Of a stretch of 64,000 nt of DNA, positions 7,194 through 55,234 are shown one piece after another. Below the pieces are notes generated by a model, which ran no database searches, was not told the origin of the DNA, and saw only the letters and a program-made list of their open reading frames with translations. The stretch is taken from the NCBI GenBank assembly GCA_045546975.1, contig JAZQDV010000010.1, positions 333,121 to 397,120 of the forward strand, read 5' to 3'. The position numbers were made by a program, and so were the translations under genes. The stretch is from Eubacteriales bacterium (GTDB lineage Bacteria > Bacillota > Clostridia > Oscillospirales > JAAYXM01). Position 1 is the stretch's first letter. Each line of letters begins with the position of its first letter.

Positions 7194-7294
7194 CGAAATT
7201 TTTCTCTTAAAATCTGTAAAAAACACTTTTCAAAACGTGTCTTCTTATGTTATTATATAATAGTACAAAAGTCGAAGGGTGGAGAGGTTCAACC

Positions 7295-8155
7295 ATGAAT
7301 TTTTTGAATGAAGCAGTAAGATACTTCAAAATGTTTGGCATTGGTGATGCTGTAGACATTTTGATAGTTGCGTATATCATCTATAAATTAATAACCTTTT
7401 CACGTCGCACAAATGCAGGACAAGTTTTCAAAGGAATTGCAGTTTTGCTGATTGTTGCGTGGGTCTCAAAGTTCTTAAGGCTTAATCTTTTAAGCTTCCT
7501 TTTGACTAAAACCCTTGAGATTGGTTTACTTGCGCTGGTTGTTTTGTTTCAGCCCGAACTACGTAAAGCGTTTGAGAAAATGGGAAGCAAGGGGTTTTCA
7601 CAATTCTATTCGGACCGCGGAACTTCTCCTACTGAACTTGAAAATGCTATAATTCAGACTGTTGAAGCCTGCAAGAGTCTTTCGTGGTCGAGGACCGGAG
7701 CACTTATTGTTTTTGAACGTGAAATTCTTCTCTCCAATATTGCAAAGACAGGAACAGCGATTGATGCCAAAGTAAACGCGGAACTTCTGAAAAATGTATT
7801 TTTTCCGAATTCGCCGCTTCATGACGGTGCTTTGATTATACAGAAAGGCAGAATAGCAGCTGCGGGATGTATGCTTCCGCTTTCCGGAAATGCAAATATA
7901 AGCAAGCAACTCGGAATGCGCCACAGGGCCGGCGTCGGTATGAGCGAAAACTCCGATTCCGTAGTGGTTGTTGTTTCCGAAGAAACAGGTTCAGTTTCTG
8001 TAGCGATCGGAGGAATGCTCAAACGCCACCTTGCTCCGGAAACACTCGAGAAGCTTTTGCGGAATGAATTAATGCCCAAGACAGATGAAGTAAAAAAAGA
8101 AAACGTCATTTTCAGTTTCCTTTTCAGAAAAAAAGAAACTGAAAAGAAAGATTAA
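7295..8155 (+). CDS. cdaA: diadenylate cyclase CdaA (c-di-AMP synthase)
   Basis: Three N-terminal TM helices followed by a DAC domain with motifs DGALII and RHRAGVGMSENSDSVVVVVSEETGSVS. Start moved to ATG 7295 (SD gggtggagagg). Confidence 0.9.
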   Translation: MNFLNEAVRYFKMFGIGDAVDILIVAYIIYKLITFSRRTNAGQVFKGIAVLLIVAWVSKFLRLNLLSFLLTKTLEIGLLALVVLFQPELRKAFEKMGSKGFSQFYSDRGTSPTELENAIIQTVEACKSLSWSRTGALIVFEREILLSNIAKTGTAIDAKVNAELLKNVFFPNSPLHDGALIIQKGRIAAAGCMLPLSGNANISKQLGMRHRAGVGMSENSDSVVVVVSEETGSVSVAIGGMLKRHLAPETLEKLLRNELMPKTDEVKKENVIFSFLFRKKETEKKD

Positions 8156-8173
8156 AGAAAGGAAGTCGCGGAA

Positions 8174-9406
8174 ATGACATGGTTAAAAAAGCATGATGTA
8201 TTTACAAAAGCGATTGCTTTTCTTGTAGCTTTAGGTCTTTGGTTTGTTGTTGTAAACGTCGATGATATTGACGAAACTCACACCTTTAAGTCTATTGAAC
8301 CTGTTTTTCAGGGTAAGGACGAGCTTAGTGCTTCGAAAAATTTACTTATAGTCGGTAAGTATACGGTCGACATTGAACTGTCGGGTAAAAGAGGCGACTT
8401 GCTCGCTCTGAATCAGGATGAAATCAAGGTTGCGGTTGATGTTTCCAAAATTACCGGAGCAGGAACGTATTCGCTTCCGTATACAGTAACACTCCCGTCC
8501 GATACTTTTACGCTCAGGAACAAAAAACCGAGCACACTTTCAGTAAAAATCGATAAAGAAGATATAGATGTTGTACCCGTAAAGGTTATGACTGACGGAA
8601 TCACTGCTGACGGTTACACAGTAGATGCTGCAAAGGTAAATATTCATCCGACGGAATTGAAGATTACAGGACTTCAGGAGGAAATTGAAAAGATTTCCTA
8701 TGCGCAAGCAGAGCTTGAGGCTAAAAACATAAAAACAACACTTACTGAAAAAGTTCCTTACAGCTTCTATGATAAAGAGGGAAATTTACTTAAATCGGTA
8801 TCTTCAATCAGTGCGGATTATTCTTCTATAGACGTTATTGTTCCTGTTTTGAAGATTAAAGATCTTCCGCTGACGCTTGAAGTGGCGGAGGGCGACGATT
8901 TTACGGAATATGTTAAGTATACCTTCAACCCGAAGACTGTAAAGGTGGCGGGTGAGGAGGGCATCATTGATGCCATGACAAGCCTTGTCGTCGGGCAGGT
9001 CAGTATTTCAGATGCTTCGGGAGAAACGGAAAGGACGTTTGAACTCACGCTTCCGGACGGAGTTATCAATATGAGCAATACAAATGAAGCGACGGCTAAA
9101 ATTAAGCTTGACGGACTTACAACAAAAACCGTAAAAGCAACTCTTATTGAGCTTTCGAACATAAATACGCTTCCGGACGGTTACAGAATAAAACCTGTTA
9201 CAACGAGCCTTGATGTAAGTATAGTAGGAAAGGCAGAAGACTTAAAAGACATAGATAGTACAAATGTTCGTGTTATAGTTGATTTGAAGTCAACCGTCTT
9301 AAGCAGAGGAACGCATCCGGTAAAAGCAACGGTAGTAATTGAAAATAAAAAGGATGTAAAGGTTGTAAATTCTGACAGCTATTTTATTCAGGTAAATGTT
9401 CAATAA
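8174..9406 (+). CDS. cdaR: CdaR / YbbR-domain regulator of CdaA
   Basis: N-terminal TM helix, repeated beta-rich YbbR-like segments, and a position immediately downstream of cdaA. Confidence 0.75.
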   Translation: MTWLKKHDVFTKAIAFLVALGLWFVVVNVDDIDETHTFKSIEPVFQGKDELSASKNLLIVGKYTVDIELSGKRGDLLALNQDEIKVAVDVSKITGAGTYSLPYTVTLPSDTFTLRNKKPSTLSVKIDKEDIDVVPVKVMTDGITADGYTVDAAKVNIHPTELKITGLQEEIEKISYAQAELEAKNIKTTLTEKVPYSFYDKEGNLLKSVSSISADYSSIDVIVPVLKIKDLPLTLEVAEGDDFTEYVKYTFNPKTVKVAGEEGIIDAMTSLVVGQVSISDASGETERTFELTLPDGVINMSNTNEATAKIKLDGLTTKTVKATLIELSNINTLPDGYRIKPVTTSLDVSIVGKAEDLKDIDSTNVRVIVDLKSTVLSRGTHPVKATVVIENKKDVKVVNSDSYFIQVNVQ

Positions 9407-24154: not shown

Positions 24155-24191
24155 AATATCCCGATTGACTTTACTGCTCAATCGGGATATT
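24155..24191 (+). terminator. 14-bp hairpin after radA (terminator-like, no U-tract)
   Basis: aatatcccgattga / 9-nt loop / tcaatcgggatatt. Followed by atatatg rather than a T-run, so its function is uncertain. Confidence 0.4.
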
Positions 24192-24241
24192 ATATATGTA
24201 GAGTGGATTTTTATACACATATTTATTTTGGAGGACATTTT

Positions 24242-24679
24242 ATGAGCAGAAAAGCTGCAAGAGAAGTAGCGGTACATATCGTTTATGACTATGGTTTTGG
24301 GAACGAAATAGGTACCGAGTCATTGGAGAGATTTTTGAGTGACGAATTTGCAGATAGCATCTCTGCGGATACTGATATATATTCACAGGTTGGCAAGGAA
24401 CAGCACGCTTATATAACGGGTATTGTCAACGGTATTTCCGAGAAACGCGACGAGATTGACGACCTTATTAAAAAGTATTCTGTCGGTTGGAATTTGAACA
24501 GAATTTCCCGCATCGCGATGGCGATTATGAGGGTCGCGGTTTATGAAACTAAATGCGTAGAGGATGTTTCTGAAAAAATTGCAATCAATGAAGCTATTGA
24601 GATTGCAAAAAAATACGATACAACCGAGACGGCTTCGTTTATTAATGGAATTCTCGGAAGTATCGCAAGAGAAGGATAG
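24242..24679 (+). CDS. nusB: transcription antitermination factor NusB
   Basis: MSRKAAREVAVHIVY... and C-terminal FINGILGSI are typical of NusB. Start moved to ATG 24242. Confidence 0.9.
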   Translation: MSRKAAREVAVHIVYDYGFGNEIGTESLERFLSDEFADSISADTDIYSQVGKEQHAYITGIVNGISEKRDEIDDLIKKYSVGWNLNRISRIAMAIMRVAVYETKCVEDVSEKIAINEAIEIAKKYDTTETASFINGILGSIAREG

Positions 24680-24687
24680 GAAAGCTT

Positions 24688-25875
24688 ATGGCTCACATTT
24701 GCACGATAAGCGAACTGAATGAGCATATCAAATCAATGTTTGACGCAAACCCCAATCTTAACGGAGTTTATGTCAAGGGTGAGATTTCAAACTATAAGTT
24801 TCACTCATCAGGTCATCATTACATGACGCTTAAGGACGAGTCTTCGGTTATTCGCGCTGTTATGTTCAAGTATGATGCAGCAAAGCTTCAATTTCGACCT
24901 GAAAGTGGAATGAAAGTTATTGTAAAGGGAAGAGTCAGCGTTTTTCCGCGAGACGGTCAGTATCAGCTATACATTACTGATATGATTCCCGATGGCGTTG
25001 GAGCTCTTTACGTTGCATTTGAACAGCTCAAGAAAAAACTCATGGCGGAAGGATTGTTTGATGAAGCTAAAAAGAAACGCCTTCCGACATATCCGAAAAA
25101 GATTGCGTTAGTTACATCGCCGACGGGTGCGGCTGTCCGTGATATGTTGCGGATATTGAAGGCGAGGTTTCCTGTCTCGGATGTGGTTGTTTGTCCTGTT
25201 CTTGTTCAGGGACCTGATGCACCGCAGGATATAGCAGATATGATCTCCTATATAAATCTTCATTCGCTTGCGGATCTCATAATTACAGGTCGTGGTGGCG
25301 GCTCCATCGAAGATTTGTGGGGGTTTAACGACGAACGTGTAGCGCGTGCTATATACGCCTCAGAAATACCTGTTATTTCCGCGGTAGGACACGAACCTGA
25401 TGTCACGATTTCTGACTTTGTTGCGGACATTAGGGCAGCAACACCGTCAAATGCGGCGGAGATAGCTGTTCCGGATATAATCTCCATAAAACGAGGACTG
25501 AAAGACACAGAACTTCGAATATATTCCGCTCTTACATCGAAACTTTCTTTCTACAAGGAAATGCTCAAAAACGTCTCACAGAAAAAAGTAATGATGAGTC
25601 CTGAAAACTATTTTCAGGAAAGAAGAATGAATCTCGTTTTTCTCTCGGAAAAGCTTTCAAACAACGCAGAACGGATAGTTTCAAAATCGAGAGAAAGGTT
25701 TGCAAAATACGTATCATCCCTTGATGCGATGAGTCCTCTCAAGGTTTTATCGCGTGGATATGCAATTGCGACAAACGAAAGCGGTAAAATAATCAAGAAG
25801 ATAACAGACGTTTCCTCGGGTGAAAAACTTGGGATTCGTTTGGAGGACGGAAGCATCGACTGTACCGTTAATTAA
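24688..25875 (+). CDS. xseA: exodeoxyribonuclease VII large subunit
   Basis: N-terminal OB fold (VYVKGEISNYKFHSSGHHYMTLKD), then GRGGGSIEDLW. Confidence 0.95.
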   Translation: MAHICTISELNEHIKSMFDANPNLNGVYVKGEISNYKFHSSGHHYMTLKDESSVIRAVMFKYDAAKLQFRPESGMKVIVKGRVSVFPRDGQYQLYITDMIPDGVGALYVAFEQLKKKLMAEGLFDEAKKKRLPTYPKKIALVTSPTGAAVRDMLRILKARFPVSDVVVCPVLVQGPDAPQDIADMISYINLHSLADLIITGRGGGSIEDLWGFNDERVARAIYASEIPVISAVGHEPDVTISDFVADIRAATPSNAAEIAVPDIISIKRGLKDTELRIYSALTSKLSFYKEMLKNVSQKKVMMSPENYFQERRMNLVFLSEKLSNNAERIVSKSRERFAKYVSSLDAMSPLKVLSRGYAIATNESGKIIKKITDVSSGEKLGIRLEDGSIDCTVN

Positions 25876-25887
25876 AGGAGTTTAACT

Positions 25888-26118
25888 ATGGCTGAGAAAA
25901 TGAATTTTGAAAAATCAATAAGCAGGCTCGAGGAGGTCGTCAAGCTTTTAGAACGTGGAGACGCTCCGCTTGATGATGCCCTGGCTCTTTTTGAAGAGGG
26001 GACAACTCTCGTCAAAACCTGCTCTAAGATGCTTGATGAGGCAGAACAGAAGGTAACGCTTCTTTCAAAGGGTGAAAAACCGAAAGAAGTTCTATTTGAT
26101 GCGGAGGAGGAAAAATGA
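25888..26118 (+). CDS. xseB: exodeoxyribonuclease VII small subunit
   Basis: 76 aa. FEKSISRLEEVVKLLERGDAPLDDALALFEEG. Confidence 0.9.
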   Translation: MAEKMNFEKSISRLEEVVKLLERGDAPLDDALALFEEGTTLVKTCSKMLDEAEQKVTLLSKGEKPKEVLFDAEEEK

Positions 26119-26993
26119 CACACGCAGAGTATTTTTCTAATTATCAGAAAGAAGTAGATACAGCTCTTCTCAATGCGATTCCGGAATCAAACTGTCTCTA
26201 CGGGAAAATTTTTGAAGCTATGCGCTATAGTTTGAATGCAGGAGGAAAGAGGATTCGTCCGATTCTTTTGCTTGAATTTGCAAAACTTTTCGGGGTTGGT
26301 ATGGAAGATGCAATGCCTTTTGCTGTAGCTCTTGAAATGATACACACATATTCGCTTATTCATGACGATCTTCCGTGTATGGATGACGATGATTTAAGAC
26401 GCGGCCGCCCGACAAACCACAAAATGTTCGGGGAGGCAACTGCAGTTCTTGCGGGTGATGCGCTCTTGAATTATGCTTTTGAGCATATTCTCAAGAAGTC
26501 AAAACTCAGTGCAGAAACTACATTATCCGCGCTCCGTTACCTTTCTGTTTCTTCGGGCGCGGACGGTATGATAGGTGGACAGATAATCGATATGGAAGGG
26601 GAGAAACGCACCTTGAATATCGATGAAATAAAAGTCCTTCAAAGCCTCAAAACCGGCGCGCTTATTCGTGCGGCAACGGTTATTGGCTGTATTCTCGGCG
26701 GCGCAGATAAAAGCAGCGTTGATGCCGCGACTCTTTACGCTGAGAAGCTCGGTCTTGCTTTCCAGATCAAAGATGACATACTCAATGTAGAAGGCAGCGC
26801 TGAGATAATGGGTAAGGACGTGGGAAATGACGAAAAGAGTGGTAAATCCACCTTTGTAAAGCTTCTCGGACTCCCCAAATGCAAGGAAATGGTAGAATCT
26901 CTTACAGAAGAGGCGATTTTGGCAGTTAAAACGCTTCCTTCTGCTGATTTTATCGTGTGGCTTGCAAACGAGCTCGTAACTCGTGAAAAATAG
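26115..26993 (+). CDS. ispA: (2E,6E)-farnesyl diphosphate synthase / polyprenyl synthetase
   Basis: First DDxxD region IHDDLPCMDDDDLRRG and second region FQIKDDILN. Confidence 0.9.
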   Translation: MTHAEYFSNYQKEVDTALLNAIPESNCLYGKIFEAMRYSLNAGGKRIRPILLLEFAKLFGVGMEDAMPFAVALEMIHTYSLIHDDLPCMDDDDLRRGRPTNHKMFGEATAVLAGDALLNYAFEHILKKSKLSAETTLSALRYLSVSSGADGMIGGQIIDMEGEKRTLNIDEIKVLQSLKTGALIRAATVIGCILGGADKSSVDAATLYAEKLGLAFQIKDDILNVEGSAEIMGKDVGNDEKSGKSTFVKLLGLPKCKEMVESLTEEAILAVKTLPSADFIVWLANELVTREK

Positions 26994-27005
26994 TTAGTAT
27001 ATATT

Positions 27006-27610
27006 ATGGGTGCAGTATCCTAGTCAGATCTGTTAATTCCCAGGACGGGCCTAAAAATCCGTAGAAGGGCATATCGATGAAGTCCCTTGTGCTTGCTTCT
27101 CTCGCCCAGATTGGGGTGAGTGCTGGGGGTTAAGGCTTTAGGGCGGAATACAATGGCATGTATTCTTAACCCTATTGCCGTGGAGACCCGATTATGTGCA
27201 TACGCCTATACACTCTCGAAGATGATGGAATGTGTACGTACCGGGGTTAAACCTGTATTGCGGTGCTTGGCATAAGCCTTGTGCTGTGTGCAGAGTAGCC
27301 TGCCTTGAGTGGTTTGCGGCGAATGGAAGAAATTAAGGCTTATGAGTTTTGGCCAAAACAAGTTTGCCGATCGCTTCCTGAAACCCCTGCTGCAAAAGAG
27401 GCTAAGAATTAACGTGACTGTTATGGAAATCATCTAGGCTGTCGTGCAGTTGAAGATTTGCAGTGCGGACTAAGTGGTGATCCGGTGCCGCTCCGGGCAA
27501 CAGAGCGGTGCGAGATTCAAAGGGAAACCGCCCTTATTGGCGACAAGGGGTATTTCGTATGGAAAACAAACCGGACCTAAGCCGTAAGATTACCTTCAAC
27601 TGCTACCCAT
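27006..27610 (+). ncRNA. ole: OLE (ornate, large, extremophilic) RNA candidate
   Basis: ~600 nt gap without a credible ORF in a tightly packed operon. The ends pair (27006-27016 atgggtgcagt with 27599-27610 actgctacccat, one bulge). Internal helices include 27127-27134/27165-27172 (gggttaag/cttaaccc), 27146-27152/27159-27165, 27487-27493/27503-27509 and 27520-27524/27531-27535. It lies exactly between ispA and a small 4-TM protein + dxs, the published ole-oapA context. Not verified with a covariance model. Confidence 0.7.
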
Positions 27611-27634
27611 ATTATTTTGGAGGTTGTATACCGA

Positions 27635-28210
27635 ATGGATAACTCGGAGACAAGAAAAGAAACACGAAAAGAAAAAGCAAGAAATACCAAGACATCTACC
27701 GTATCGTGGTCACTAAAGATACTTTTTGCAAGCTTTGTTCTTTCTGTATTTTTCAATGCCATGTCAGAAACAGCGCTTCCCAAGGTTAATGTTCCGACTG
27801 CTTTTTTGATACTTTTCCTTTTTATCCTTCTCGGTATTGTTTTTGATATATTTGGTGTAGCCACGACAACTGCAACGGAAAAGACTTTCCACGCAATGGC
27901 GGCAAAGCGTGTTCCTGCGGCAAAACAAGCTCTCTGGCTTGTGAAAAATGCAGAAAAGGTATCGAGCTTCTGTAATGATGTAGTTGGTGATATTTGCGGA
28001 ATTATGAGTGGATCCACAGCAACGATTATTATTGCGACTTTGCCACTTGAAAAGACCGCAGATTTTGTTATATCTCTTGCTATAGGCGGACTTGTTGCAG
28101 GTATTACGGTAGGAGGCAAGGCTTTCGGCAAGGGCTTTGCAATGTCGCATAATAACAAAATTGTGTTTTTTATGGCACGTGTTATAAGATTTTTTTCTAA
28201 AGAAAGATAA
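27635..28210 (+). CDS. oapA: OLE-associated membrane protein OapA candidate
   Basis: ~191 aa (197 from the TTG at 27617) with a basic N-terminus and about four hydrophobic helices. Immediately downstream of the structured RNA and upstream of dxs. SD ggagg at 27619-27623. Confidence 0.6.
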   Translation: MDNSETRKETRKEKARNTKTSTVSWSLKILFASFVLSVFFNAMSETALPKVNVPTAFLILFLFILLGIVFDIFGVATTTATEKTFHAMAAKRVPAAKQALWLVKNAEKVSSFCNDVVGDICGIMSGSTATIIIATLPLEKTADFVISLAIGGLVAGITVGGKAFGKGFAMSHNNKIVFFMARVIRFFSKER

Positions 28211-28231: not shown

Positions 28232-30082
28232 ATGAACTTGTTATCAGAGATAAATAGCCCTGAGGACATTAAAAGACTTTCCGTCAATGAACTTAGAGAG
28301 CTTGCAACTGAAATACGCGAGTTTTTAATTGAAAATGTTTCTCAAACGGGTGGACATCTTGCCTCAAATCTCGGAATAGTTGAAATAACCCTTGCTCTTC
28401 ACAAGGTTTTTGATACAAGTAAGGACAGACTCGTTTTCGATGTGGGTCATCAGTCGTATGTACATAAAATACTGACAGGAAGAAAAAACGAGTTTAGCAA
28501 TTTGAGAAAATTCGGAGGTATTTCAGGATTTTCAAAGCCGAGTGAAAGTATTCACGACGCGGCAATTTCAGGACATGCCTCGAATTCTGTTTCATTGGCT
28601 CTTGGTATGGCAAGAGCCAGAACGCTTGCAGGAAAAGACTTTTCAGTTATTTCAGTTATTGGAGACGGAGCGCTGAGCGGCGGACTTGCATATGAAGGAC
28701 TAAACGATGCAGGGCACAGTAAAGAGCCGATGATTGTTATATTGAATGACAATGAGATGTCCATAACAAAAAACGTCGGTGCGATGACAAATTATCTCTC
28801 AAAAATTCGCCTTAAGAAAAAATATCTCAGATTTAAGGGCGTTTACAGAAGAATAATCAAAAAGTCAAAGTTCGGAATCGCGATTGATAACGGTATACAC
28901 GGAATCAAGAATGCATTCAAAAATATGTTTTTGCCGTCATCTTTCTTTGAGGATATGGGGTTTACTTACCTTGGTCCTGCGGACGGTCACGACATAAAGT
29001 ATATGATATATCTTTTTGAGCTTGCGCGCGACCTTAACAGACCTGTTGTCATTCATCTTACTACAACAAAAGGTAAGGGTTATAAGCTTTCTGAGGCTAA
29101 CCCTGAAAACTACCACGGAGTAGGTAAATTTGATGCTACAAAAGGAATAGATGATACCACAAAGAAAGAAACATTCTCATCTGTGTTTGGTCAAGAGCTT
29201 GTAAAGCTCGCGGCAGAAAATGAGAAAATTTGCGCAATAACCGCAGCTATGACATCCGGAGTCGGCCTTTCCGAGTTTTCCGAAAAATACCCGGAAAGAT
29301 TCTTTGATGTTGCTATTGCGGAAGGACACGCAGTTACAATGTCAGCAGGGCTTTCTTCACAGGGAATGATACCTGTATGTGCCGTTTATTCAACTTTTTT
29401 GCAGAGAGCATACGATATGCTTGTTCACGATGTTGCAATTTCAAAGCAACACGTAGTTTTTGCTGTTGACCGCGCAGGTTTGGTTGGCGAGGACGGAGAA
29501 ACCCATCACGGTGTATTTGATATAGCGTTTTTGTCAAGTATTCCCGGATTTGAGATTCTTGCACCGTCAAGCTTCAGCGAGCTTCGCGAGATGCTTGGAT
29601 ATGCTGTATCGGAGTCCGGTCCGATTGCAATACGATATCCAAGAGGTGCAGAAGGGGACTATACTGATAATTCATTTAAGAATAAAGAAAAAAGCACGCT
29701 TCTGCGTGAGGGTACGGATGTAACACTTGTTTCGTACGGAACACTTATAAATAACGCAATTCTTGCGACGGAGAAAGCCAATTCGCTGGGAATATCGTGT
29801 GAGCTTATTAAATTAAACTCACTAAAACCCATTGATAAAGAAGCAATAATCAAATCAGCGCAGAAGACGGGGAAGGTCGTCGTGATTGAAGATGTCACGG
29901 AAAACGGCTCTGTATCGCAAATGATATCAAAGTGCCTTGGTGAGGAAAAAACGTTGTGTGAAGTTGTTTCACTTAACAGCTCAGATTCCTTCACAACGCA
30001 CGGAAACATCGGAGAACTTCATAATCTGATTGGGATATCTCCGGATAGAATAGTTAATGCATTATTGGAGGACAGACAGTGA
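28232..30082 (+). CDS. dxs: 1-deoxy-D-xylulose-5-phosphate synthase
   Basis: N-terminus LLSEINSPEDIKRLSVNELRELATEIREFLI..VSQTGGHLASNLG, and the TPP motif GDGALSGG...NDN. Confidence 0.95.
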   Translation: MNLLSEINSPEDIKRLSVNELRELATEIREFLIENVSQTGGHLASNLGIVEITLALHKVFDTSKDRLVFDVGHQSYVHKILTGRKNEFSNLRKFGGISGFSKPSESIHDAAISGHASNSVSLALGMARARTLAGKDFSVISVIGDGALSGGLAYEGLNDAGHSKEPMIVILNDNEMSITKNVGAMTNYLSKIRLKKKYLRFKGVYRRIIKKSKFGIAIDNGIHGIKNAFKNMFLPSSFFEDMGFTYLGPADGHDIKYMIYLFELARDLNRPVVIHLTTTKGKGYKLSEANPENYHGVGKFDATKGIDDTTKKETFSSVFGQELVKLAAENEKICAITAAMTSGVGLSEFSEKYPERFFDVAIAEGHAVTMSAGLSSQGMIPVCAVYSTFLQRAYDMLVHDVAISKQHVVFAVDRAGLVGEDGETHHGVFDIAFLSSIPGFEILAPSSFSELREMLGYAVSESGPIAIRYPRGAEGDYTDNSFKNKEKSTLLREGTDVTLVSYGTLINNAILATEKANSLGISCELIKLNSLKPIDKEAIIKSAQKTGKVVVIEDVTENGSVSQMISKCLGEEKTLCEVVSLNSSDSFTTHGNIGELHNLIGISPDRIVNALLEDRQ

Positions 30083-30882
30083 GCGAAAAAAAGAGGCTTG
30101 ATATACTTTTGGTTGAACGCGGACTTGCTGCAAGCCGCGAAAAAGCAAAAGCGGTTATTATGAGCGGAAATGTCTTTGTTGCCGGACAGAAGGCCGATAA
30201 AGCAGGCGAGATGTTTTTAGACGACATTGAAATTGATGTTCGTGGAAACGAAAACTCATACGTAAGTCGCGGCGGACTTAAAATAGAAAAAGCGCTTGAC
30301 TTTTTTTCTGCTGAGGTTGAAGGAAAAACAGCAATCGATGTTGGTGCTTCTACGGGCGGTTTTACAGATTGCTTACTCCGTCGAGGTGCGGTAAAGGTCT
30401 ATTCTGTTGATGTCGGATACGGGCAGCTTGCGTGGTCGCTTCGGTGTGACCCTCGCGTTGTTTGTATGGAGCGTACCAATATAAGATATGTTACCCGTGA
30501 ACAGATACCTGACGAAATTGAGCTTGCGGTTATTGATGTATCATTTATTTCATTAAAGCTTGTTCTTCCTGCTGTTCGCTCGCTTATGACAGAAAACGGA
30601 AAAGCTTATTGCCTTATTAAGCCACAGTTTGAGGCAGGAAAGGAAAAAGTCGGAAAGAAAGGCGTTGTAAGAGACCCTGAGGTACACCGTGAAGTTTTAG
30701 AAAACTTTATTTCAAATGCCAATGCTGCAGGCTTTGGGGTTTGTGGAATTACTTTTTCTCCGATAACAGGTCCCGAAGGTAACATTGAGTTTCTCGGAAG
30801 TTTATCCTGCGAAGCCTCTGTCAACGGGGAAATAGATATTCCGGATATCGTTGAACAGGCACATAACTCACTGAAAGGATAG
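30079..30882 (+). CDS. tlyA: TlyA-family rRNA (cytidine-2'-O)-methyltransferase
   Basis: S4 domain KRLDILLVERGLAASREKAKAVI followed by the FtsJ fold DVGASTGGFTDCLL. Confidence 0.9.
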   Translation: MSEKKRLDILLVERGLAASREKAKAVIMSGNVFVAGQKADKAGEMFLDDIEIDVRGNENSYVSRGGLKIEKALDFFSAEVEGKTAIDVGASTGGFTDCLLRRGAVKVYSVDVGYGQLAWSLRCDPRVVCMERTNIRYVTREQIPDEIELAVIDVSFISLKLVLPAVRSLMTENGKAYCLIKPQFEAGKEKVGKKGVVRDPEVHREVLENFISNANAAGFGVCGITFSPITGPEGNIEFLGSLSCEASVNGEIDIPDIVEQAHNSLKG

Positions 30883-30889: not shown

Positions 30890-31750
30890 GTGAAAAAAGT
30901 TCTATTAAATCCAAATATTTCGCGTGATATAGGTTTTGCGTGCACAAAGAAAGTCTCTGAGTTCTTACAGAACAATGGTATTGAAACCTTTATTTCGGAG
31001 CTGGTTCCGGGCGCTGAGGAAACCGGCGCTGTGCTTTGTGATTTTGATACAGTGGCACGCGAGGTTGATATGATAATTTCCTTTGGCGGAGATGGTACTC
31101 TTCTTGATACAGCAAACCAGGTAGTGTCAACAGATGTTCCGATTCTCGGAATAAATATCGGAAGAATCGGTTATATGGCAGAGCTTGAATCCAACGAAAT
31201 TGACCTTCTTAAAAATGTTGTTGACGGAAAATACCGTGAAGAAGAACGAATGATGATAGATGTTTCTGTCGTCCGAGGCGACAAAGAGATATATAAGAAA
31301 TCGGCTCTCAATGATGTAGTTCTTATGAAAACAGGCGTTATCTGGACGGTTGATGTGGATATTTTTGCTGACGATATGTTTATTTCACATTACAGTGGAG
31401 ACGGTGCGATTTTTGCAACGCCCACGGGCTCAACTGCATACTCGCTTTCGGCAGGCGGACCGATAATAGACCCCATTTCAAAAAACATTACGATAACTCC
31501 GGTTTGTGCACATGCCCTTACGGCAAAGCCGATTGTGCTTTCCGAGGACCGTGTTGTAAAGATTATTCCCACAACGCAGAAAAATGCCGCGATTGCAATC
31601 TCCGTAGACGGCAACAAGGGTCTTGAACTTATGCTTGGCGACTACGTTAAAATCCAAAAATCAAAGTATGTCACAAAACTCATACATGTAAAAGATACGA
31701 ATTTTTATGATGTATTATATTCTAAGCTTTCTGATAGGAGGTATCGCTGA
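30890..31750 (+). CDS. nadK: NAD+ kinase
   Basis: GGDGTLL and the ATPTGSTAYSLSAGGPI motif. GTG start. Confidence 0.9.
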   Translation: MKKVLLNPNISRDIGFACTKKVSEFLQNNGIETFISELVPGAEETGAVLCDFDTVAREVDMIISFGGDGTLLDTANQVVSTDVPILGINIGRIGYMAELESNEIDLLKNVVDGKYREEERMMIDVSVVRGDKEIYKKSALNDVVLMKTGVIWTVDVDIFADDMFISHYSGDGAIFATPTGSTAYSLSAGGPIIDPISKNITITPVCAHALTAKPIVLSEDRVVKIIPTTQKNAAIAISVDGNKGLELMLGDYVKIQKSKYVTKLIHVKDTNFYDVLYSKLSDRRYR

Positions 31751-32203
31751 ATGAAATCCAAAAGACAAAACACACTTTTGAAGCTCATCGAAAAGTTTGA
31801 AATTTCAACACAAACCGAACTCACAGAGCATCTAAAAAAGGAAGGCTTTGCCGTTACTCAGGCAACTATTTCCCGCGATATAAAGGAGCTCAGACTTGTA
31901 AAAGCGGTTGCTGCAAATGGTAAGAGCAAATATGCTGTTTCACATTCTGCGAAGGATTCGGGCTTTTCTGACAGGCTTCTTGCTATTTTCAAGGAAAGCG
32001 TTCTTTCATACGACAATGCACAGAATATAGTAGTTTTGAAAACAATGCCGGGTCTTGCTTCTGCAGCCTGCTCTGCGATTGATGCAATGCAATCGGCAGA
32101 TATCGCAGGAACACTTGCAGGCGATGATACAGCCTTTCTTGTCCTTCATACAACGGAAGCAGCTCAAGATTTTTGCGAAGAACTCAACAAACTTCTCTCA
32201 TAA
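31751..32203 (+). CDS. argR: arginine repressor
   Basis: Winged-helix region TQTELTEHLKKEGFAVTQATISRDIKEL and C-terminal GTLAGDDT. Confidence 0.9.
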   Translation: MKSKRQNTLLKLIEKFEISTQTELTEHLKKEGFAVTQATISRDIKELRLVKAVAANGKSKYAVSHSAKDSGFSDRLLAIFKESVLSYDNAQNIVVLKTMPGLASAACSAIDAMQSADIAGTLAGDDTAFLVLHTTEAAQDFCEELNKLLS

Positions 32204-32219: not shown

Positions 32220-33923
32220 ATGCTTAAACTTCTTCACATCGAAAATATTGCGGTTATTGAACAGTGTGACATTGAATTCGACAAAGGGTTTAATGTCCTT
32301 ACCGGTGAAACAGGTGCGGGTAAGTCTATAATTATAGACGCAATCGGCGCTGTTTTGGGCTATAGAGCATACCGTGATGTTATCCGTAACGGCACGGAAA
32401 AAGCTTCTGTAAGCGCCGTTTTTTGCGACTGTAGTGATGAAGTTAAAGAATGGCTTTCCGAAAATGGCTTTGATGTCGGAGAAGATGAGGTAATAATTTC
32501 AAGAGAAATCTCAATTGATGGAAAAAGCTCTGCACGGATAAACGGTCGTCCTGCTTCTGCATCTGTCCTTAAAAGCCTCGGAATTCTTCTGATAAACATT
32601 CTTGGTCAGCATGACAGTCAGCAGCTTCTTGATGCAGAGTCACACGCTGTTTTTGTGGACAGATTTGCAGAAAGTGAGGAGTATATAGAAGCATCGAAAA
32701 AATACTCCGAAACATACTCCGAATTGCAGGAGTTAAAGAGTGAACTGTCAAAGCTTGATATTGACGAGGCATCAAAGGCCCGTCAGGTAGAGATGCTCAA
32801 GTTTCAGATTGAAGAGCTTGAGTCAGCAAATCTCAGAGAAGGTGAAGACACAGAACTTGTAGAACGCCAAAAGCTGATACGCGACAGTACGAAAGTTATA
32901 GATAAAATTTCAAAGGCTTCCTCATTGTTTCTTGGAGGGGATGAGTTCCCGGGTGTTTGCGCGGCTCTTTCTGAGGCATCGCGTGCAATAAGCACCATTT
33001 CGGATGTATCTGAAAAAATGGGCACAATTTCAAACGCTGTTTCAGAGCTCTACTTCGCAGCTGATGATATTGCAGCAGAGCTTCGCACGTTTCTTGACGA
33101 TTTGGACTTTTCCGATGACGATGCAAACGCTGTTGAGGCCCGTCTTGATGTCATATATAAGCTCAAAAGAAAATACGGCAATGACGTGTCTGAAATGCTT
33201 ACATATCTAGAAAACGCAAAAAAAGAGCTTTCCGAAATTGAATTTTCAGATGAGAGGGTAGCCTTTCTCGAAAATGAAATCGCAAAGAAAGAAACAGTTG
33301 CGTTCTCTCTTGCAGAGAAGCTTTACAGCTTCAGGATGAAAGCTGCCCGTGAGTTTGAAAGTCGCATAATGAACGAGCTCTCTGACCTTGATATGAAAAA
33401 CGCAAGGTTTGTTGTCAATATAGAAAAAACTGAATCGTTAAGTGCAAGAGGTCTTGACACAATAGAGTTTTTATTTTCTGCAAATATTGGTGAGATTGAA
33501 AAACCGCTGGAAAAAATCGCGTCAGGCGGCGAGCTTTCGAGAATTATGCTTGCACTTAAGAATGCGCTTGATGAAAATGACTATGTCAACACACTTATTT
33601 TTGATGAGATTGACACCGGTGTGAGTGGAAGGGCTGCACAAAAAATAGCAGAAAAGCTCTATAAACTCTCAATCAAAAAGCAGGTACTGTGCGTCACGCA
33701 CCTTGCTCAGCTTGCTGCGATGGCTGACAATCACTTTAAGATTGAAAAGAGCGAGCGAGACGGCAGAACATATACAAATGTCTATGTTCTTGACCGTGAA
33801 GGAAGAGAGGCTGAGCTTGCAAGAATTACGGGAGGTACCAAGATAAGTGAAACTACGCTTAAGAGCGCAGGTGAAATGCTCGACCTTGCCGAAAATCTGA
33901 AATCACATCAGAAAGGAAACTAA
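32220..33923 (+). CDS. recN: DNA repair protein RecN
   Basis: Walker A GETGAGKS, long coiled coil, signature SGGELSRIMLA and Walker B LIFDEIDTG. Confidence 0.95.
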   Translation: MLKLLHIENIAVIEQCDIEFDKGFNVLTGETGAGKSIIIDAIGAVLGYRAYRDVIRNGTEKASVSAVFCDCSDEVKEWLSENGFDVGEDEVIISREISIDGKSSARINGRPASASVLKSLGILLINILGQHDSQQLLDAESHAVFVDRFAESEEYIEASKKYSETYSELQELKSELSKLDIDEASKARQVEMLKFQIEELESANLREGEDTELVERQKLIRDSTKVIDKISKASSLFLGGDEFPGVCAALSEASRAISTISDVSEKMGTISNAVSELYFAADDIAAELRTFLDDLDFSDDDANAVEARLDVIYKLKRKYGNDVSEMLTYLENAKKELSEIEFSDERVAFLENEIAKKETVAFSLAEKLYSFRMKAAREFESRIMNELSDLDMKNARFVVNIEKTESLSARGLDTIEFLFSANIGEIEKPLEKIASGGELSRIMLALKNALDENDYVNTLIFDEIDTGVSGRAAQKIAEKLYKLSIKKQVLCVTHLAQLAAMADNHFKIEKSERDGRTYTNVYVLDREGREAELARITGGTKISETTLKSAGEMLDLAENLKSHQKGN

Positions 33924-33925: not shown

Positions 33926-35278
33926 ATGTCGTTTAGAAAAGATTTTGTCTGGGGTACGGCTACATCGTCATATCAGATAGAGGGCGCGTGGGACGAGGAC
34001 GGAAAAGGACTTAACATCTGGGATGTTTTTTCGCACGAGCCTGAAAAAGTATATGAAAATCAAAACGGTGATGTGGCATGTGACCACTATCACCGATACA
34101 AAGAAGATATTGCGCTTATGCGTGAAATGGGAAAAAAAGCATATCGCTTTTCACTCTCCTGGGCGCGCATTTTCCCTGAAGGAACGGGCAAGGTATGCGA
34201 AAAGGGAGTTAAGTTTTACTCAGACCTTATAGATGAGCTTTTGAAAAACGGAATTGAGCCGTATGTTACGCTTTTTCATTGGGATTATCCTTATACGCTG
34301 CACAAAAAGGGTGGATGGATGAACGAGGAAAGCGTTAGGTGGTTCGCGGAATATGCCGGAAAGGTAGCAGAGCTTTTTTCTGACAGAGTAAAATATTTTA
34401 TTACATTCAATGAGCCTCAGTGTTTTATCGGACTTGGATATGTTTCGGGCGTTCATGCTCCGGGAATAAAAGCATCCTACAGAGATGTTTTTCAGATGTG
34501 CCACAATGTGCTTAAAGCACACGGTGCAGCGGTTATAGCTTTACGTGAAAATGCAAAGCAGCCGATAAAAATTGGATACGCTCCGACAAGCCGTGGCGTT
34601 TATCCCGAAACGGAAACTCCTGCAGATATCGAAGCTGCAAGGAAGGCATTTTTCAGATCTTTCCCACTTGGAGAGGACGTTATGTGGAGTGTTGCCTGGT
34701 GGAGTGATCCTGTTGTTCTGGGAAAATACCCGGAGGACGGGCTTATCCTGTATAAAGATTATCTTCCTGAGATTACTGATGAGGATATGAAGCTCATAAA
34801 TCAGCCAATTGATTTCTATGCTCAGAACATTTATAACGGTCGTGCGATAAGAACTACTGAGAACGGTGACTATGAATTCTGTAAGCGTTGCGACGGTTTT
34901 CCGAAAACTGCAATTCAATGGCCTGTAACTCCAGAATGTATGCGCTGGACTCCAAGATTTCTCTATGAGAGATACCATCTTCCGTTTTATATTTCGGAAA
35001 ACGGAATGTCTGCACATGATGTTGTATCGCTTGACGGGAAAGTTCACGACCCTAACCGTATAGACTTCCTGAACCGTTACCTCATCGAGTATGAAAAGGC
35101 GACTGAGGACGGTGTTGATGCGGCAGGATATTTCCTCTGGTCGTTTATGGATAACTTTGAGTGGGCAGACGGATATAACGACCGATTTGGTATTGTACAC
35201 GTTGATTTCAGGACGCAGAAAAGGACACCGAAGGACTCTGCGTACTGGTACAAAGAATGGATAGAAAAACACAGCTAA
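33926..35278 (+). CDS. GH1 beta-glucosidase / 6-phospho-beta-glucosidase
   Basis: FVWGTATSSYQIEGA, acid/base TFNEP and nucleophile YISENG. Confidence 0.9.
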   Translation: MSFRKDFVWGTATSSYQIEGAWDEDGKGLNIWDVFSHEPEKVYENQNGDVACDHYHRYKEDIALMREMGKKAYRFSLSWARIFPEGTGKVCEKGVKFYSDLIDELLKNGIEPYVTLFHWDYPYTLHKKGGWMNEESVRWFAEYAGKVAELFSDRVKYFITFNEPQCFIGLGYVSGVHAPGIKASYRDVFQMCHNVLKAHGAAVIALRENAKQPIKIGYAPTSRGVYPETETPADIEAARKAFFRSFPLGEDVMWSVAWWSDPVVLGKYPEDGLILYKDYLPEITDEDMKLINQPIDFYAQNIYNGRAIRTTENGDYEFCKRCDGFPKTAIQWPVTPECMRWTPRFLYERYHLPFYISENGMSAHDVVSLDGKVHDPNRIDFLNRYLIEYEKATEDGVDAAGYFLWSFMDNFEWADGYNDRFGIVHVDFRTQKRTPKDSAYWYKEWIEKHS

Positions 35279-35285
35279 TAAAAAA

Positions 35286-35308
35286 AGAGCAATGCTATGC
35301 ATTGCTCT
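35286..35308. terminator. bidirectional hairpin between convergent GH1 and ksgA genes
   Basis: agagcaatgc / tat / gcattgctct, flanked by an A-run and a T-run. The right arm overlaps the last ksgA codons. Confidence 0.55.
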
Positions 35309-36161
35309 TTTCGTATATCTTGTCCGAAATATCGGAAAAGTCCTGTATCGTAAGGTTTTCGCCTCTGACCGTCGGATTATGCCCAAGCTCTGTCAGAATG
35401 GTTATTATTTCTTCTTTCGAGAGAATGTCCTTAAATGCGGAATGTAGTCCGTTTACAAGCTGCTTTCTGCGCTGCGCAAATGAGGCGCGTACGACCGAAA
35501 AGAAGAGCTTTTCGGATTTTGGTGTAACGGGTGGCACCTCGCGCATTTTAAGCATAACAACGGCGGAATCAACCTTTGGTTGGGGAATAAAGCAGTCAGG
35601 TGAGACCGTGAACAGGAGTTCCGGCTCGGTATAGTAATTTACGTATACTGTAAAAGCACCGTAATCGGCGGTGCCGGGTTTTGCTGAAATGCGGTATGCA
35701 ACCTCTTTCTGAATCATCGTTGTTATTGAAGAAAAGAGTTTTGATTCAATCAAGAACGAGAGAATCGGGGTTGTTATATAGTAGGGAAGGTTTGCACAAA
35801 CCTTCGGACTTTCTCCGCGGAACTCGTCATCAATGATTTTTTTGAGGTCACACTTCATTATATCGGAGTTGATAATTTTTATATTATCATATTCCGAGAG
35901 TGTTTCGGAAAGAACGGGAAGAAGTGCACGGTCGATTTCAACGGAAACAACTTTCTTTGCGTTTTCGGCAAGTACGCTTGTGAGGCTTCCTATTCCGGGA
36001 CCAACCTCGAGAACGGATGTTTCTTTTGTGATTCCCGAAAACTCGGCAATTTGCTCACAGATATAGCGTTTTGTAAGGAAATTTTGACCGAGGGATTTTG
36101 AAAAACGGAATCCATGACGGCCTAAAATATCTTTGATGTTGTTGATTGAAAATAAGTCCAT
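35295..36161 (-). CDS. rsmA: 16S rRNA (adenine1518/1519-N6)-dimethyltransferase
   Basis: KSLGQNFL, VLEVGPGIGSLT, NLPYYITTPI. Confidence 0.95.
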   Translation of the reverse strand: MDLFSINNIKDILGRHGFRFSKSLGQNFLTKRYICEQIAEFSGITKETSVLEVGPGIGSLTSVLAENAKKVVSVEIDRALLPVLSETLSEYDNIKIINSDIMKCDLKKIIDDEFRGESPKVCANLPYYITTPILSFLIESKLFSSITTMIQKEVAYRISAKPGTADYGAFTVYVNYYTEPELLFTVSPDCFIPQPKVDSAVVMLKMREVPPVTPKSEKLFFSVVRASFAQRRKQLVNGLHSAFKDILSKEEIITILTELGHNPTVRGENLTIQDFSDISDKIYEKSNA

Positions 36162-38352: not shown

Positions 38353-40032
38353 TCAGGCTTCATAGATTTCGACGTCAGTGTAGTAGAAATTGATGATATC
38401 TTGTGCGGTATATCCTGAGAGTGCCATTGCTTTTGCGCCGTTCTGACTAAGACCAACGTTGTGTCCCCATCCGGTACCGGAAACGACGAAGGTAGCTTCC
38501 GAAGATGTGTTTTGCTGGGATGGTTTTTTGTTGGGGTCAAAGACGGTGACTCCGTTTGCAGTTATGATAGAAACGGCGGATTTTGGAAGAGATGCCTGAC
38601 CGTTTGCACCTATTGCAAAAATTGTATCATAAGCAAAATCCACACTGCTTGATTTATTGACATACATCATACTTGCGGATGCTGCCTCACCTTTTCTTGT
38701 GACATTAAAACGTTGGCTATGAGCGTACTTTTTGTAGGTTGAGCTATAAAGTATAGTCTTTGCTTTTTCTTTTGAAAAATTAAACTCTTTGCCTGTCGAG
38801 TCTACCATTGTGAGAACTTTTACATTTCCCATACGGGTAAATTCCTTGACGTACATATTGACAATTTTCTGGCAAGGATAACCCTTCGCATTGAGGATAT
38901 ATGTAAGCTGGTCTGAGGTGTATTCATAAGACCAACGGCCGTTTGTACAGGTGTCAAGGTCTTCGTTATTGTCGTAAACTCCGCGGAGATAGGGGAGTGC
39001 CGCGGACCACACATTTTCCGAATCTTCTGTTGCACCGCCGTTGGAAGAGTAGAATACAGCGTTTATCGGCTTGCCGTCATAAAGAATATACATTCCGTAG
39101 GTTTCGTCAACTGCGAGGTCTGAGTTTTCGTTTGCGGAGTTTGCGCCTCTGTATACCTGGCAGTCTGTTGTTGCGCATACGTCAAAGTTCTTTCCGTGCT
39201 TTCCGTAATTATAAAGCGCGTAAGTCTTTGCGCAAAGCGCCTGCGCCTTCAGTGCCTCTTTCGGCCAGTTTGCAGACATTTCGTAGGGGATTACGCCTTT
39301 TGTGTAATCTTGCATTGAAACAAAATTTATTACGGTTATATTACCTCCGTCACGGATATACTGGAAACCGCCATAATATTTATATCCCTTGAACCATGTA
39401 AGCGGAGCTGTTCCGTCATTTGATACGGGGCATACAGCAAGGTATGTATCGTTATCGTATTCAAACAGAATCTTTCCGGTATTTGTGTCAACAACAGTAA
39501 CACATTTGCGGTTATTTCCTACAGGAATACAGATACCTAGGTTTGCATACTTCGCAATGTCTGACTGCGCTGCAGTAAGAGAAGCGTATGAGCCGATTCG
39601 TATTCTGTATTCACCGTTTTGTACACAGACAAAAGCGGGGATTCCCTGAATCTGGAGCGAGGTTGCAGTAAGTGTGGCATCCCTCTGAGTGTCGAATGTA
39701 TCGCTCGTCTGGAGGTGGAAAGCACCGATGAGTGTGCTTCCGCTCGGCGCACCGGACTCATAGAATTTACCGTCCGAAAAATATATGTTTGAGTCTTTGA
39801 GCATACTTATGAATTTTGTTCCCATTTCCTCATGTTCTGCTATAAAGTTGTGTTCTGAATCAAAATAGCCAAATTGATAGCCAAAACCGTTTGCGTTCTG
39901 CAGGTTGGCAGAAATCATCGCATCGTTTCCGTAATACAAACCAACCCTGACGGTCGGGTTTGCATCAAGTGCAGCAAAAGCGGTTATTGAAAGCAGCGCA
40001 AAGAGGATTGCGGAAATCAAAAACTTTTTCAC
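38353..40032 (-). CDS. SpoIID/LytB-domain protein with N-terminal SPOR-like region
   Basis: Signal peptide. SPOR-like EYRIRIGSYASLTAAQSDIAKY. SpoIID motifs ALKAQALCAKTYAL, DVCATTDCQVYRG, YSSNGGATE and GHNVGLSQNGA. Confidence 0.85.
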   Translation of the reverse strand: MKKFLISAILFALLSITAFAALDANPTVRVGLYYGNDAMISANLQNANGFGYQFGYFDSEHNFIAEHEEMGTKFISMLKDSNIYFSDGKFYESGAPSGSTLIGAFHLQTSDTFDTQRDATLTATSLQIQGIPAFVCVQNGEYRIRIGSYASLTAAQSDIAKYANLGICIPVGNNRKCVTVVDTNTGKILFEYDNDTYLAVCPVSNDGTAPLTWFKGYKYYGGFQYIRDGGNITVINFVSMQDYTKGVIPYEMSANWPKEALKAQALCAKTYALYNYGKHGKNFDVCATTDCQVYRGANSANENSDLAVDETYGMYILYDGKPINAVFYSSNGGATEDSENVWSAALPYLRGVYDNNEDLDTCTNGRWSYEYTSDQLTYILNAKGYPCQKIVNMYVKEFTRMGNVKVLTMVDSTGKEFNFSKEKAKTILYSSTYKKYAHSQRFNVTRKGEAASASMMYVNKSSSVDFAYDTIFAIGANGQASLPKSAVSIITANGVTVFDPNKKPSQQNTSSEATFVVSGTGWGHNVGLSQNGAKAMALSGYTAQDIINFYYTDVEIYEA

Positions 40033-46420: not shown

Positions 46421-47050
46421 ATGAAAAAATCCTTAAAAGCAAAAGTTTCCGGTATCTACCTCAACAACTTTTCTATCAATTCCGCTATTCTTCTGCTATT
46501 TCTGGTACTTGGAACGGTCGCAGGAATGATTATTACAAAGCAAACAGGAGAGGGAAGCGCTTTACCGACGCTCGAGAAAAACATCAATGAAATTGTGCAA
46601 AACGGAGTAGGGGAATACTCACTCATAAAAACTTTTTTTAATTCGGCAAAATTTCCATTGATAATTTTCCTTTCAGGTTTTACCGCTTTTGGAGTATTTC
46701 TCGTACCATTTGTTGTCTGTGTTAAAGGTTGCCTTCTCTCGATGTCCGTTTCAGCGATTATAAATTCTTTTGGTATAAAAGGCTTTCTTTTAGCTCTTTC
46801 AATGTTTGGAATTCAGGCTCTTGCATCGATTCCTTGCATTATTGTTATTTCTTCGTATTCAATGGAGGTTTCCAAAGGTTTTCTTTCTGCCTTTGGTAAA
46901 TTCAAAAAGAACTCATTGAAAACCCGCCCGCAAACAAGTTCATTTGTGATTTTCTTCTTAATGATCATTTTTCTTTTGTTTCTGTTTTCTTTGCTTGATG
47001 TCACAGTGACACCGAAGCTAGTTACACTATCTGCAAAATCAATACTTTAA
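46421..47050 (+). CDS. spoIIM: stage II sporulation protein M-like membrane protein
   Basis: ~209 aa polytopic membrane protein. Its N-terminal pattern resembles SpoIIM. Sits next to xerD as in Bacillus (spoIIM-fur-ripX region). Confidence 0.5.
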   Translation: MKKSLKAKVSGIYLNNFSINSAILLLFLVLGTVAGMIITKQTGEGSALPTLEKNINEIVQNGVGEYSLIKTFFNSAKFPLIIFLSGFTAFGVFLVPFVVCVKGCLLSMSVSAIINSFGIKGFLLALSMFGIQALASIPCIIVISSYSMEVSKGFLSAFGKFKKNSLKTRPQTSSFVIFFLMIIFLLFLFSLLDVTVTPKLVTLSAKSIL

Positions 47051-55019: not shown

Positions 55020-55200
55020 ATATAAGGAAGGTAAAACCCTGCTCTGTTTGTGATGTGCCATTTTAAACCCACATTACTATAACGGGATTCCGGACTTCTT
55101 GAAAGGATAGCAGGCCTCCCGATGTGTTTTCTGCGCGTCGGACGTTGGAAGCTTATGATGTTTAAGAGAGGAAACCCACCTGCACACGTGCAGGTTATAA
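55020..55200 (+). ncRNA. unclassified structured RNA / long leader upstream of tcdA (possible 6S RNA, unverified)
   Basis: ~180 nt with no credible ORF, downstream of a near-consensus promoter. Pairings seen: cctGctct/agagagg, cacat/atgtg, cggga/tcccg, and the terminal hairpin cctgca-cacg-tgcagg (55179-55194). AAACCC occurs three times. Confidence 0.3.
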
Positions 55201-55234
55201 ATTGGCGCACACGGCAGTTGCGGGGGAATTTTAT

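Follow-up and report, generated by a model that had tools for sequence, protein, structure and literature searches.

An OLE RNA gene followed by a predicted oapA gene between ispA and dxs in a clostridial gene array

We found an OLE RNA gene of the full-length type, with its structured core at 27006-27610, followed by oapA (27635-28210), inside a packed gene array in a stretch of DNA of 64,000 nucleotides (the window). OLE RNA is among the largest and best conserved non-coding RNAs of bacteria. Taken as a whole, the explanation that we favour joins the identity of the RNA and of oapA to a set of inferred workings, and we hold it with high confidence. We found nothing that contradicts the identity of either gene.

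Results

A single gap in a packed gene array

From nusB through the gene beyond recN the intergenic distances range from -4 to 21 nt, with the sole exception of ispA and oapA, which lie 641 nt apart. Pfam and NCBIfam assignments gave the tightly packed order nusB-xseA-xseB-ispA-(OLE)-oapA-dxs-tlyA-nadK-argR-recN (Table 1). This agrees with the original prediction, which had proposed the same order from xseA through recN and had noticed a stretch of about 640 nt lacking a credible ORF within a tight operon. The gap opens 3' of the end of ispA at 26993 and the next credible start is the ATG at 27635. Within the gap we found a 51-aa sense frame beginning with GTG, a 40-aa sense frame and a 75-aa antisense frame (27206-27433), none of which is supported. 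A 236-aa antisense frame, also unsupported, is a shadow of oapA. The GC content of 26991-27625 is 0.479 compared to 0.446 for ispA, 0.394 for oapA and 0.417 for the window, so the stretch is indeed richer in GC than its flanks, as had been claimed.

Promoter and terminator scans both performed near chance level (29 promoter-like sites against 25.8 expected). The best promoter-like site of the region lies ahead of nusB (24165-24193) and the strongest terminator-like site lies past the GH1 gene 3' of recN (35283-35311). At this near-chance level, the scans gave no convincing promoter-like or terminator-like site flanking the OLE RNA.

Table 1. Positions of the array genes, the OLE RNA and its structural elements in the window.
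Feature	Position	Strand	Basis or detail
NusB	24203-24679	+	Pfam/NCBIfam
Exonuclease VII large subunit (xseA)	24688-25875	+	Pfam/NCBIfam
Exonuclease VII small subunit (xseB)	25888-26118	+	Pfam/NCBIfam
ispA, farnesyl diphosphate synthase (upstream flank)	26115-26993	+	NF045485, 333 bits
OLE RNA gene (Rfam-delimited)	26991-27625	+	RF01071, 434.3 bits, E 3.3e-124, model 1-616 of 616, not truncated
OLE structured core closed by P1 (605 nt)	27006-27610	+	Terminal helix pairing
P1 terminal helix, AUGGGU/ACCCAU	27006-27011 / 27605-27610	+	93.4% paired, 5 of 6 pairs with double-sided changes
P4a hairpin, near-invariant loop GGGCCUAAAAAUCC	27044-27063	+	Helix 97% paired (66 sequences)
P5 region with k-turn strands (predicted OapC site)	27072-27135	+	Match to Rfam model, helix supported
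P6, enclosing the gaataca/tgtattc hairpin	27134-27179	+	Consensus helices 4-6
P7, 59 nt (median of relatives 59), 15-nt apical insertion relative to Rfam model	27187-27245	+	
P8, 41 nt (median 37)	27253-27293	+	Helix 95% paired
P9 long arm, 101 nt (median 98)	27302-27402	+	Consensus helices 9-13
3' domain with P13 and P14/P14.1, closed by long-range GCAGUUGAAG/CUUCAACUGC	27445-27604	+	Consensus helices 15-21
P13 hairpin (predicted OapB docking site)	27488-27508	+	8 pairs (7 of 8 canonical)
oapA Shine-Dalgarno GGAGG	27619-27623	+	11 nt ahead of ATG, 8 nt past P1
oapA, 191-aa membrane protein (predicted)	27635-28210	+	ATG 27635, starts 25 nt past P1
dxs (downstream flank)	28232-30082	+	TIGR00204, 703 bits, 21 nt past oapA
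TlyA	30079-30882	+	Pfam/NCBIfam
NAD kinase (nadK)	30890-31750	+	Pfam/NCBIfam
ArgR	31751-32203	+	Pfam/NCBIfam
RecN	32220-33923	+	Pfam/NCBIfam

The gap encodes an OLE RNA

The whole window was scanned against Rfam 15, in which OLE (RF01071) has a gathering threshold of 50 bits. We found that the gap matches OLE on the plus strand over the full length of the model. The match brackets 27006-27610, the extent predicted for the RNA from the pairing of its ends, and its start shares 3 nt with the stop codon of ispA. Together with the similarity of the downstream protein to OapA, this supports the original reading of the region as an OLE ribonucleoprotein locus. The scan returned a second match elsewhere in the window, a 6S RNA at 55033-55230.

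When the structure of the model was projected onto the window sequence, 136 of the 154 consensus pairs were canonical and 18 were not. We then compared the window OLE with 65 full-length OLE sequences taken from 80 listed genomic loci in which the downstream protein has a relative (66 sequences in total). In this alignment 86.8% of pair cells held standard pairs, and sliding the 3' partners by 1-3 columns lowered this to 38-47%. Double-sided changes were seen in 124 of 160 pairs. None of 500 shuffles came up to the observed values. The minimum free energy of 27006-27610 is -213.4 kcal/mol compared to -192.9 +/- 7.4 for shuffled sequences (z = -2.8; none of 20 shuffles equalled it). Many unpaired nucleotides are invariant across the alignment and the window OLE preserves the invariant nucleotides. 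Its score of 434 bits falls in the middle of the range of related OLE loci (374-529 bits).

Structural elements and partner sites of the window OLE

The elements of the RNA could be assigned from P1 to the 3' domain (Table 1). The P1 terminal helix is missing from Rfam's structure line. The long-range helix that closes the 3' domain (27445-27455/27594-27604) is 96.5% paired across the alignment and all 11 of its pairs covary. P4a is one of two regions to which OapA binding has been mapped, as cited in PMC12265935.

For OapB to dock, P13 must be capped by a GNRA tetraloop and carry a bulge of one nucleotide (PMC7936274). P13 of the window OLE has a single bulged nucleotide, C27493, and the GNRA tetraloop GCAA at 27497-27500. 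A GNRA loop stands at this place in 65 of the 66 sequences, most often as GCAA. OapC binds a k-turn that nucleotides in J4a/5 and J5/6 form around P5 (PMC9723947). In the window the k-turn strands are UAUCGAUGAAGU and GUUAAGG, each in the form that occurs most often in the 66 sequences. Judged by these nucleotides, the OapB and OapC sites of the window OLE are intact.

Fernando and Breaker distinguish full-length OLE from two reduced forms, variant 1 with short P7-P9 and an OapB site that is often missing, and variant 2 without P7 or P8 (PMC11332333). Having P7, P8 and a long P9, the window OLE is of the full-length type. The lengths of P7, P8 and P9 are each at least the median of the 66 sequences, and P8 carries at its tip an insertion of 12 nt that the Rfam model lacks. 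The small hairpin that the Rfam model has at positions 445-456 is missing, and the linker from P10 to the 3' domain is, at 11 nt, the shortest of the 66 sequences (median 17). We considered whether the missing hairpin marks a reduced variant and rejected this, P7, P8 and P9 being of full length. We attach no significance to its absence because the hairpin ranges among relatives from absent in several sequences to a long stem at the other extreme.

About half of the helices first drawn by hand belong to the conserved fold

The original prediction had drawn several helices by eye, and all of their complementary segments are present where it had placed them. In the proposed end-to-end helix 27006-27016/27599-27610, the outer six pairs (27006-27011/27605-27610) are P1, 93% paired with 5 of 6 pairs covarying. 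The inner GCAGU/ACUGC part fails, with 62.7% pairing against 63.5% in shuffles. Similarly, of gggttaag/cttaaccc with its enclosed gaataca/tgtattc, the inner hairpin holds (core AUACA/UGUAU, consensus helix 6, in P6) and the outer stem does not (GGGUUAAG/CUUAACCC, 64.3% paired against 63.6% in shuffles). The proposed gccgctc/gagcggt stem is P13 (consensus helices 18-19). The last of them, AAGGG/CCCUU, is 68.0% paired against 65.7% in shuffles. The three helices left without support are no better than shuffles and each would displace a strongly covarying consensus helix, one example being the long-range helix 27445-27455/27594-27604. Half of the hand-picked helices therefore fall outside the conserved fold.

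The downstream gene encodes a predicted OapA

The first gene after the RNA had been expected to encode a protein of about 191-197 aa with a basic N-terminus and about four transmembrane segments. We found that its product has 191 aa, with K or R at 8 of the first 30 residues. Four long hydrophobic helices, at residues 19-47, 53-79, 106-135 and 140-171, emerge from its hydropathy profile and from an AlphaFold2 model (mean pLDDT 77). We compared this protein with the published OapA sequence given in Supplementary Table 4 of Kretsch et al. 2025 (PMC12286853) and found 38% identity over 175 aa (E 5e-34). OapA is described as lacking a proline that is typically conserved in CNNM domains. The distinctive feature of OapA is a DxxxD motif, which CNNM domains lack (PMC11332333). 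The window protein has DxxxD at residues 115-119 (D115-V-V-G-D119; nt 27977-27991). In an alignment of 28 homologues D115, G118 and D119 are invariant, as are K108, K162 and K166, and the surrounding motif CNDVxGDI is invariant save for its variable fifth position. OapA is also described as having a conserved cluster of positive charges on its cytoplasmic face, for which these lysines and the basic N-terminus would be candidates.

In Pfam the only match of the protein was CNNM (PF01595) at 27.0 bits, below the cut-off of 28.4 bits, and no CBS or CorC domain was found in its 191 aa. No NCBIfam model matched. A Foldseek search with the model returned as its six best PDB matches entries of MtCorB, an archaeal CNNM protein (7M1T, 7M1U), and of the CorC transmembrane domain (7CFF, 7CFG), with query-normalised TM-scores of 0.43-0.56 and weak E-values (0.04-2), which agrees with the comparison of OapA and CorB in the literature. 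A profile search of PDB sequences with the homologue alignment gave nothing meaningful (best match EMC4, E 0.64), so the link to CorB comes solely from the comparison of folds.

A database search found 2,879 homologues of the protein, and the named ones among the best 120 of the 2,879 belong to Oscillospiraceae, Ruminococcaceae, Butyricicoccus and other Clostridia. In a genome scan with the protein, the best relatives were 39-51% identical among the matches listed. The nearest protein relatives thus belong to Oscillospiraceae and other Clostridia, and the sporulation genes spoIID and spoIIM are present in the window.

Relatives of oapA are linked to OLE in other genomes

The 80 listed loci encoding relatives of the downstream protein were scanned for OLE. 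OLE was found upstream on the same strand in 77 of them, at a distance of at most 1 kb in 74 and of 1.8-3.8 kb, with genes inserted between, in three. Within the locus DNA searched OLE was not found in the remaining three. We found dxs directly 3' of oapA in 68 of 79 related loci listed and ispA upstream in only 27 of 63. Since dxs is common and ispA less so, the conserved core is ole-oapA-dxs, to which the window adds the classical upstream side.

This linkage, the identity to published OapA, the DxxxD motif and the weak CNNM/CorB resemblance all bear out the original assignment. By each property open to testing from sequence, the 191-aa product is identified as OapA.

No other partner gene lies in the window

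As the original prediction had stated, OapB and OapC are not encoded in the window. A Pfam search of all substantial ORFs of the window found no L7Ae-family protein (OapC), KOW-type protein (OapB), bS21, or protein combining CNNM, CBS and CorC domains (MpfA). Searching the window by tblastn with published OapC and RpsU sequences returned nothing. When small ORFs were compared with PDB sequences, the only matches were RemA-like and RNA polymerase omega proteins. The absence of OapB from the window is based on this comparison and on the lack of a KOW-type Pfam match. As the binding sites for OapB and OapC are intact, both proteins would be expected elsewhere in the genome.

Discussion

How the locus may work

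The workings that we propose draw on the anatomy of the window and on published studies of OLE from Halalkalibacterium halodurans and Clostridium. With no convincing promoter-like or terminator-like site on either side, the OLE RNA probably shares a transcript with its neighbours. The promoter scan being at chance level, co-transcription followed by processing is taken as a reasonable default assumption. Processing would leave a stable RNA of about 600 nt whose ends pair in P1, and this RNA would fold into the conserved multi-helix architecture and dimerise, as OLE RNA has been found to do (PMC12286853). OapA is described as binding OLE RNA cooperatively, a binding that membrane localisation requires. 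It tethers the RNA to the membrane, and in H. halodurans the RNA depends on OapB and OapC for its function (PMC9723947, PMC7936274, PMC12265935). In the window host a four-helix OapA would likewise hold the RNA at the cell membrane, with OapB docking on the bulged P13 capped by the GNRA loop and OapC on the k-turn around P5.

What this complex does is a more tentative matter. The occurrence of OLE is anticorrelated with that of MpfA, a Mg2+ transporter with a transmembrane domain similar to OapA (PMC11332333), and the OLE ribonucleoprotein has been compared with MpfA (PMC12265935). Cells with a disrupted OLE complex become sensitive to alcohol, to cold, to Mg2+ and to alternative carbon sources (PMC10898510). 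We suggest that OapA may be a stripped-down transporter core of the CNNM/CorB type and that the RNA may serve as a regulatory module in place of the CBS pair and CorC domain, tuning ion flux. Such tuning would adjust growth under alcohol, cold, excess Mg2+ and poor carbon sources. We favour this model because OapA has a CNNM-like core without soluble domains and because of the published anticorrelation of OLE and MpfA, and we give it somewhat less than an even chance. It has recently been proposed that OLE RNA spans the membrane and replaces the regulatory domains of a Mg2+ transporter.

Alternative readings of the locus

The same OLE/OapA locus could instead produce an RNA that is primarily a ribozyme, or the scaffold of a stress-integrating hub ('bTOR'). 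The size, complexity and high conservation of the RNA speak for this, with 124 pairs that covary and many unpaired nucleotides that do not vary, and the Breaker laboratory argues for a ribozyme from such features (PMC11332333). The several protein partners and the diverse phenotypes published for OLE (PMC12265935, PMC10898510, PMC12054373) would also suit this reading. However, about 20 years of OLE study have identified no reaction or substrate, and nothing in the window hints at a substrate. An ion-homeostasis core fits better with the CNNM kinship of OapA and with the published anticorrelation of OLE and MpfA, so that we regard a ribozyme or hub as unlikely, if still a serious contender.

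Other readings question the RNA itself. That the stretch is a degenerate, non-functional remnant of OLE might be thought from the missing 445-456 hairpin, the shortest P10-to-3'-domain linker of the alignment and the 18 non-canonical pairs. Against this, the score is mid-range, the other elements are of typical length, the invariant nucleotides are kept and oapA is intact, and among several relatives the missing hairpin varies or is absent; decay is highly improbable. Another long shot is that the OLE of this lineage may be a slightly trimmed form competent for its partners, in which a near-invariant 5' GCAG would swap with the 5' strand of the 3'-domain helix for the 3' CUGC and so act as a switch. 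If true, this switch between the P1 extension and the 3' domain would gate the folding of the unresolved second domain. The gap could also be read as an unstructured spacer, as a cis-regulatory leader of the downstream gene, given that the Shine-Dalgarno of oapA lies just 8 nt past P1, or as coding for the 75-aa antisense or 51-aa sense ORF, there being ORFs of 40-75 aa within it. We give these readings almost no probability. The covariance model matches over its full length, double-sided pair changes are the pattern of an RNA and not of coding sequence, and OLE precedes oapA in 77 of the 80 listed loci, so this group of readings is effectively refuted already.

Comparison with known OLE systems

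The reading of the locus as OLE RNA and oapA has a practical value, which is correct annotation: the 641-nt gap is an RNA gene and not a spacer or a small ORF, and the 191-aa protein can be named OapA. By the same reading, oapB and oapC/ybxF are expected in other parts of the genome. The class, the synteny, the partner protein, the CNNM kinship, the binding sites and the variant types have all been published, and the locus is an ordinary member of its class. This copy adds nothing new on the job of OLE, and any Rfam-based pipeline would annotate it automatically.

The OLE of H. (Bacillus) halodurans (RF01071) and the window copy have in common the helices, the conserved joining sequences, the k-turn and the P13 GNRA loop and bulge, and both lie between ispA and oapA-dxs. 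The window host is of another lineage, Oscillospiraceae-like by its nearest protein relatives. Compared to the Rfam model, the window OLE lacks the 445-456 hairpin and carries the P7 and P8 insertions. The OLE RNAs of C. acetobutylicum and C. botulinum, known as dimers from cryo-EM (PMC12286853), belong to the same family as the window copy. PDB 9LCR is among the Clostridium OLE structures, as cited in PMC12265935. OLE from a locus of Clostridium sensu stricto (C. subterminale) aligns throughout with that of the window. The reduced variants 1 (TANB77) and 2 (RF39) described in PMC11332333 share conserved core nucleotides with the window OLE, which, unlike them, keeps a P7 of 59 nt, a P8 of 41 nt, a P9 of 101 nt and the predicted OapB site. 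Seven A/T-rich reduced relatives in our alignment (L005, L007, L028, L032, L040, L070 and L074) also lack the small hairpin ahead of the 3' domain.

On the protein side, the predicted transmembrane fold of the window OapA is similar to that of MpfA, CorB and CorC (CNNM, PF01595), to judge from the Foldseek matches. Unlike these proteins it has no CBS pair or CorC domain, has DxxxD and is only 191 aa long, and its model has one transmembrane helix more than CorB, as published for OapA. We considered the window protein as a member of the MpfA/CorB family and rejected this, the CNNM match lying below the cut-off in a protein of 191 aa with neither CBS nor CorC domain. Published OapA and the window protein are both encoded directly after ole, have about 190 aa, four transmembrane segments, DxxxD and weak CNNM similarity, and carry no soluble domains.

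Additional genes and a second structured RNA in the window

Besides OLE, the window carries a match to 6S/SsrS RNA. The TTG listed as the start of a ThiF-family ORF (55202) lies inside the 3' end of this match and, because of this overlap, the real start of the ORF is probably more downstream. The diadenylate cyclase CdaA (DAC and CdaA_N domains) and the CdaR-like protein encoded after it form the usual pair for c-di-AMP synthesis. A GH1 beta-glucosidase gene is an unusual tail for the nusB-to-recN housekeeping array, and the hairpin that follows it (35283-35311, 13 pairs) is the strongest terminator-like one of the region. Between the two tyrosine recombinase genes we found a 284-aa ORF (47974-48828) with no Pfam match; the recombinases could be Xer-type or could mark the edge of a mobile element.

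Features of the window outside the OLE-oapA locus
Feature	Position	Strand	Remarks
CdaA, then YbbR-repeat (CdaR-like) protein	7247-9406	+	
GH1 beta-glucosidase gene, then terminator-like hairpin	33926-35311	+	begins 2 nt past recN
SpoIID homologue	38353-40032	-	
SpoIIM homologue	46421-47050	+	
Tyrosine recombinase gene	47064-47948	+	
Tyrosine recombinase gene	48870-49886	-	
6S/SsrS RNA	55033-55230	+	RF00013, 68.1 bits (threshold 46.4), E 2.5e-11

The presence of homologues of SpoIID and SpoIIM points to a lineage that forms spores, in agreement with the reported correlation of OLE RNA with sporulation genes (PMC11332333).

Variation among OLE and oapA loci

Among the loci encoding relatives of the window OapA, three have two genes between OLE and oapA (L007:2244-4001, L022:240-4001 and L076:288-2077). 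The same gene set is present at L052, but OLE was not found there in the 4 kb examined. These four come from A/T-rich MAGs labelled 'Bacilli', with one labelled Bacteroidaceae. The product of one inserted gene is about 418 aa long and hydrophobic at its N-terminus; that of the other is small (61-124 aa) and has a single hydrophobic segment. A prepilin-like gene (N-terminus KGFTLIEVLGVL) takes the place of dxs 3' of oapA.

Full OLE-oapA loci were also found on contigs titled Bacteroidaceae or Muribaculaceae (L007, L028 and L040). Mis-binning of Bacillota contigs is the most likely explanation; Fernando and Breaker had the same suspicion about their own non-Bacillota OLE matches (PMC11332333).

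Two Oscillospiraceae-type oapA-dxs loci (L010:433-1086 and L065:3911-4516) had no OLE RNA in the locus DNA examined, and ole could have been lost or relocated in both. Directly upstream in L010, at the contig end, is an IS-type transposase fragment; in L065 the upstream genes are unrelated and lie on both strands.

In the alignment of 66 OLE sequences (A2), 19 Oscillospiraceae-type RNAs contain an extra G+C-rich hairpin within J5/6 (columns 145-168; for example L002:3155-3821 and L069:3294-3964), and the carriers include Sporobacter termitidis and Neopoerus faecalis. In many of the 19 the k-turn strand reads GCUGUGAAAC rather than UCGAUGAAGU. This clade may have a remodelled OapC site. The window OLE is missing the J5/6 hairpin.
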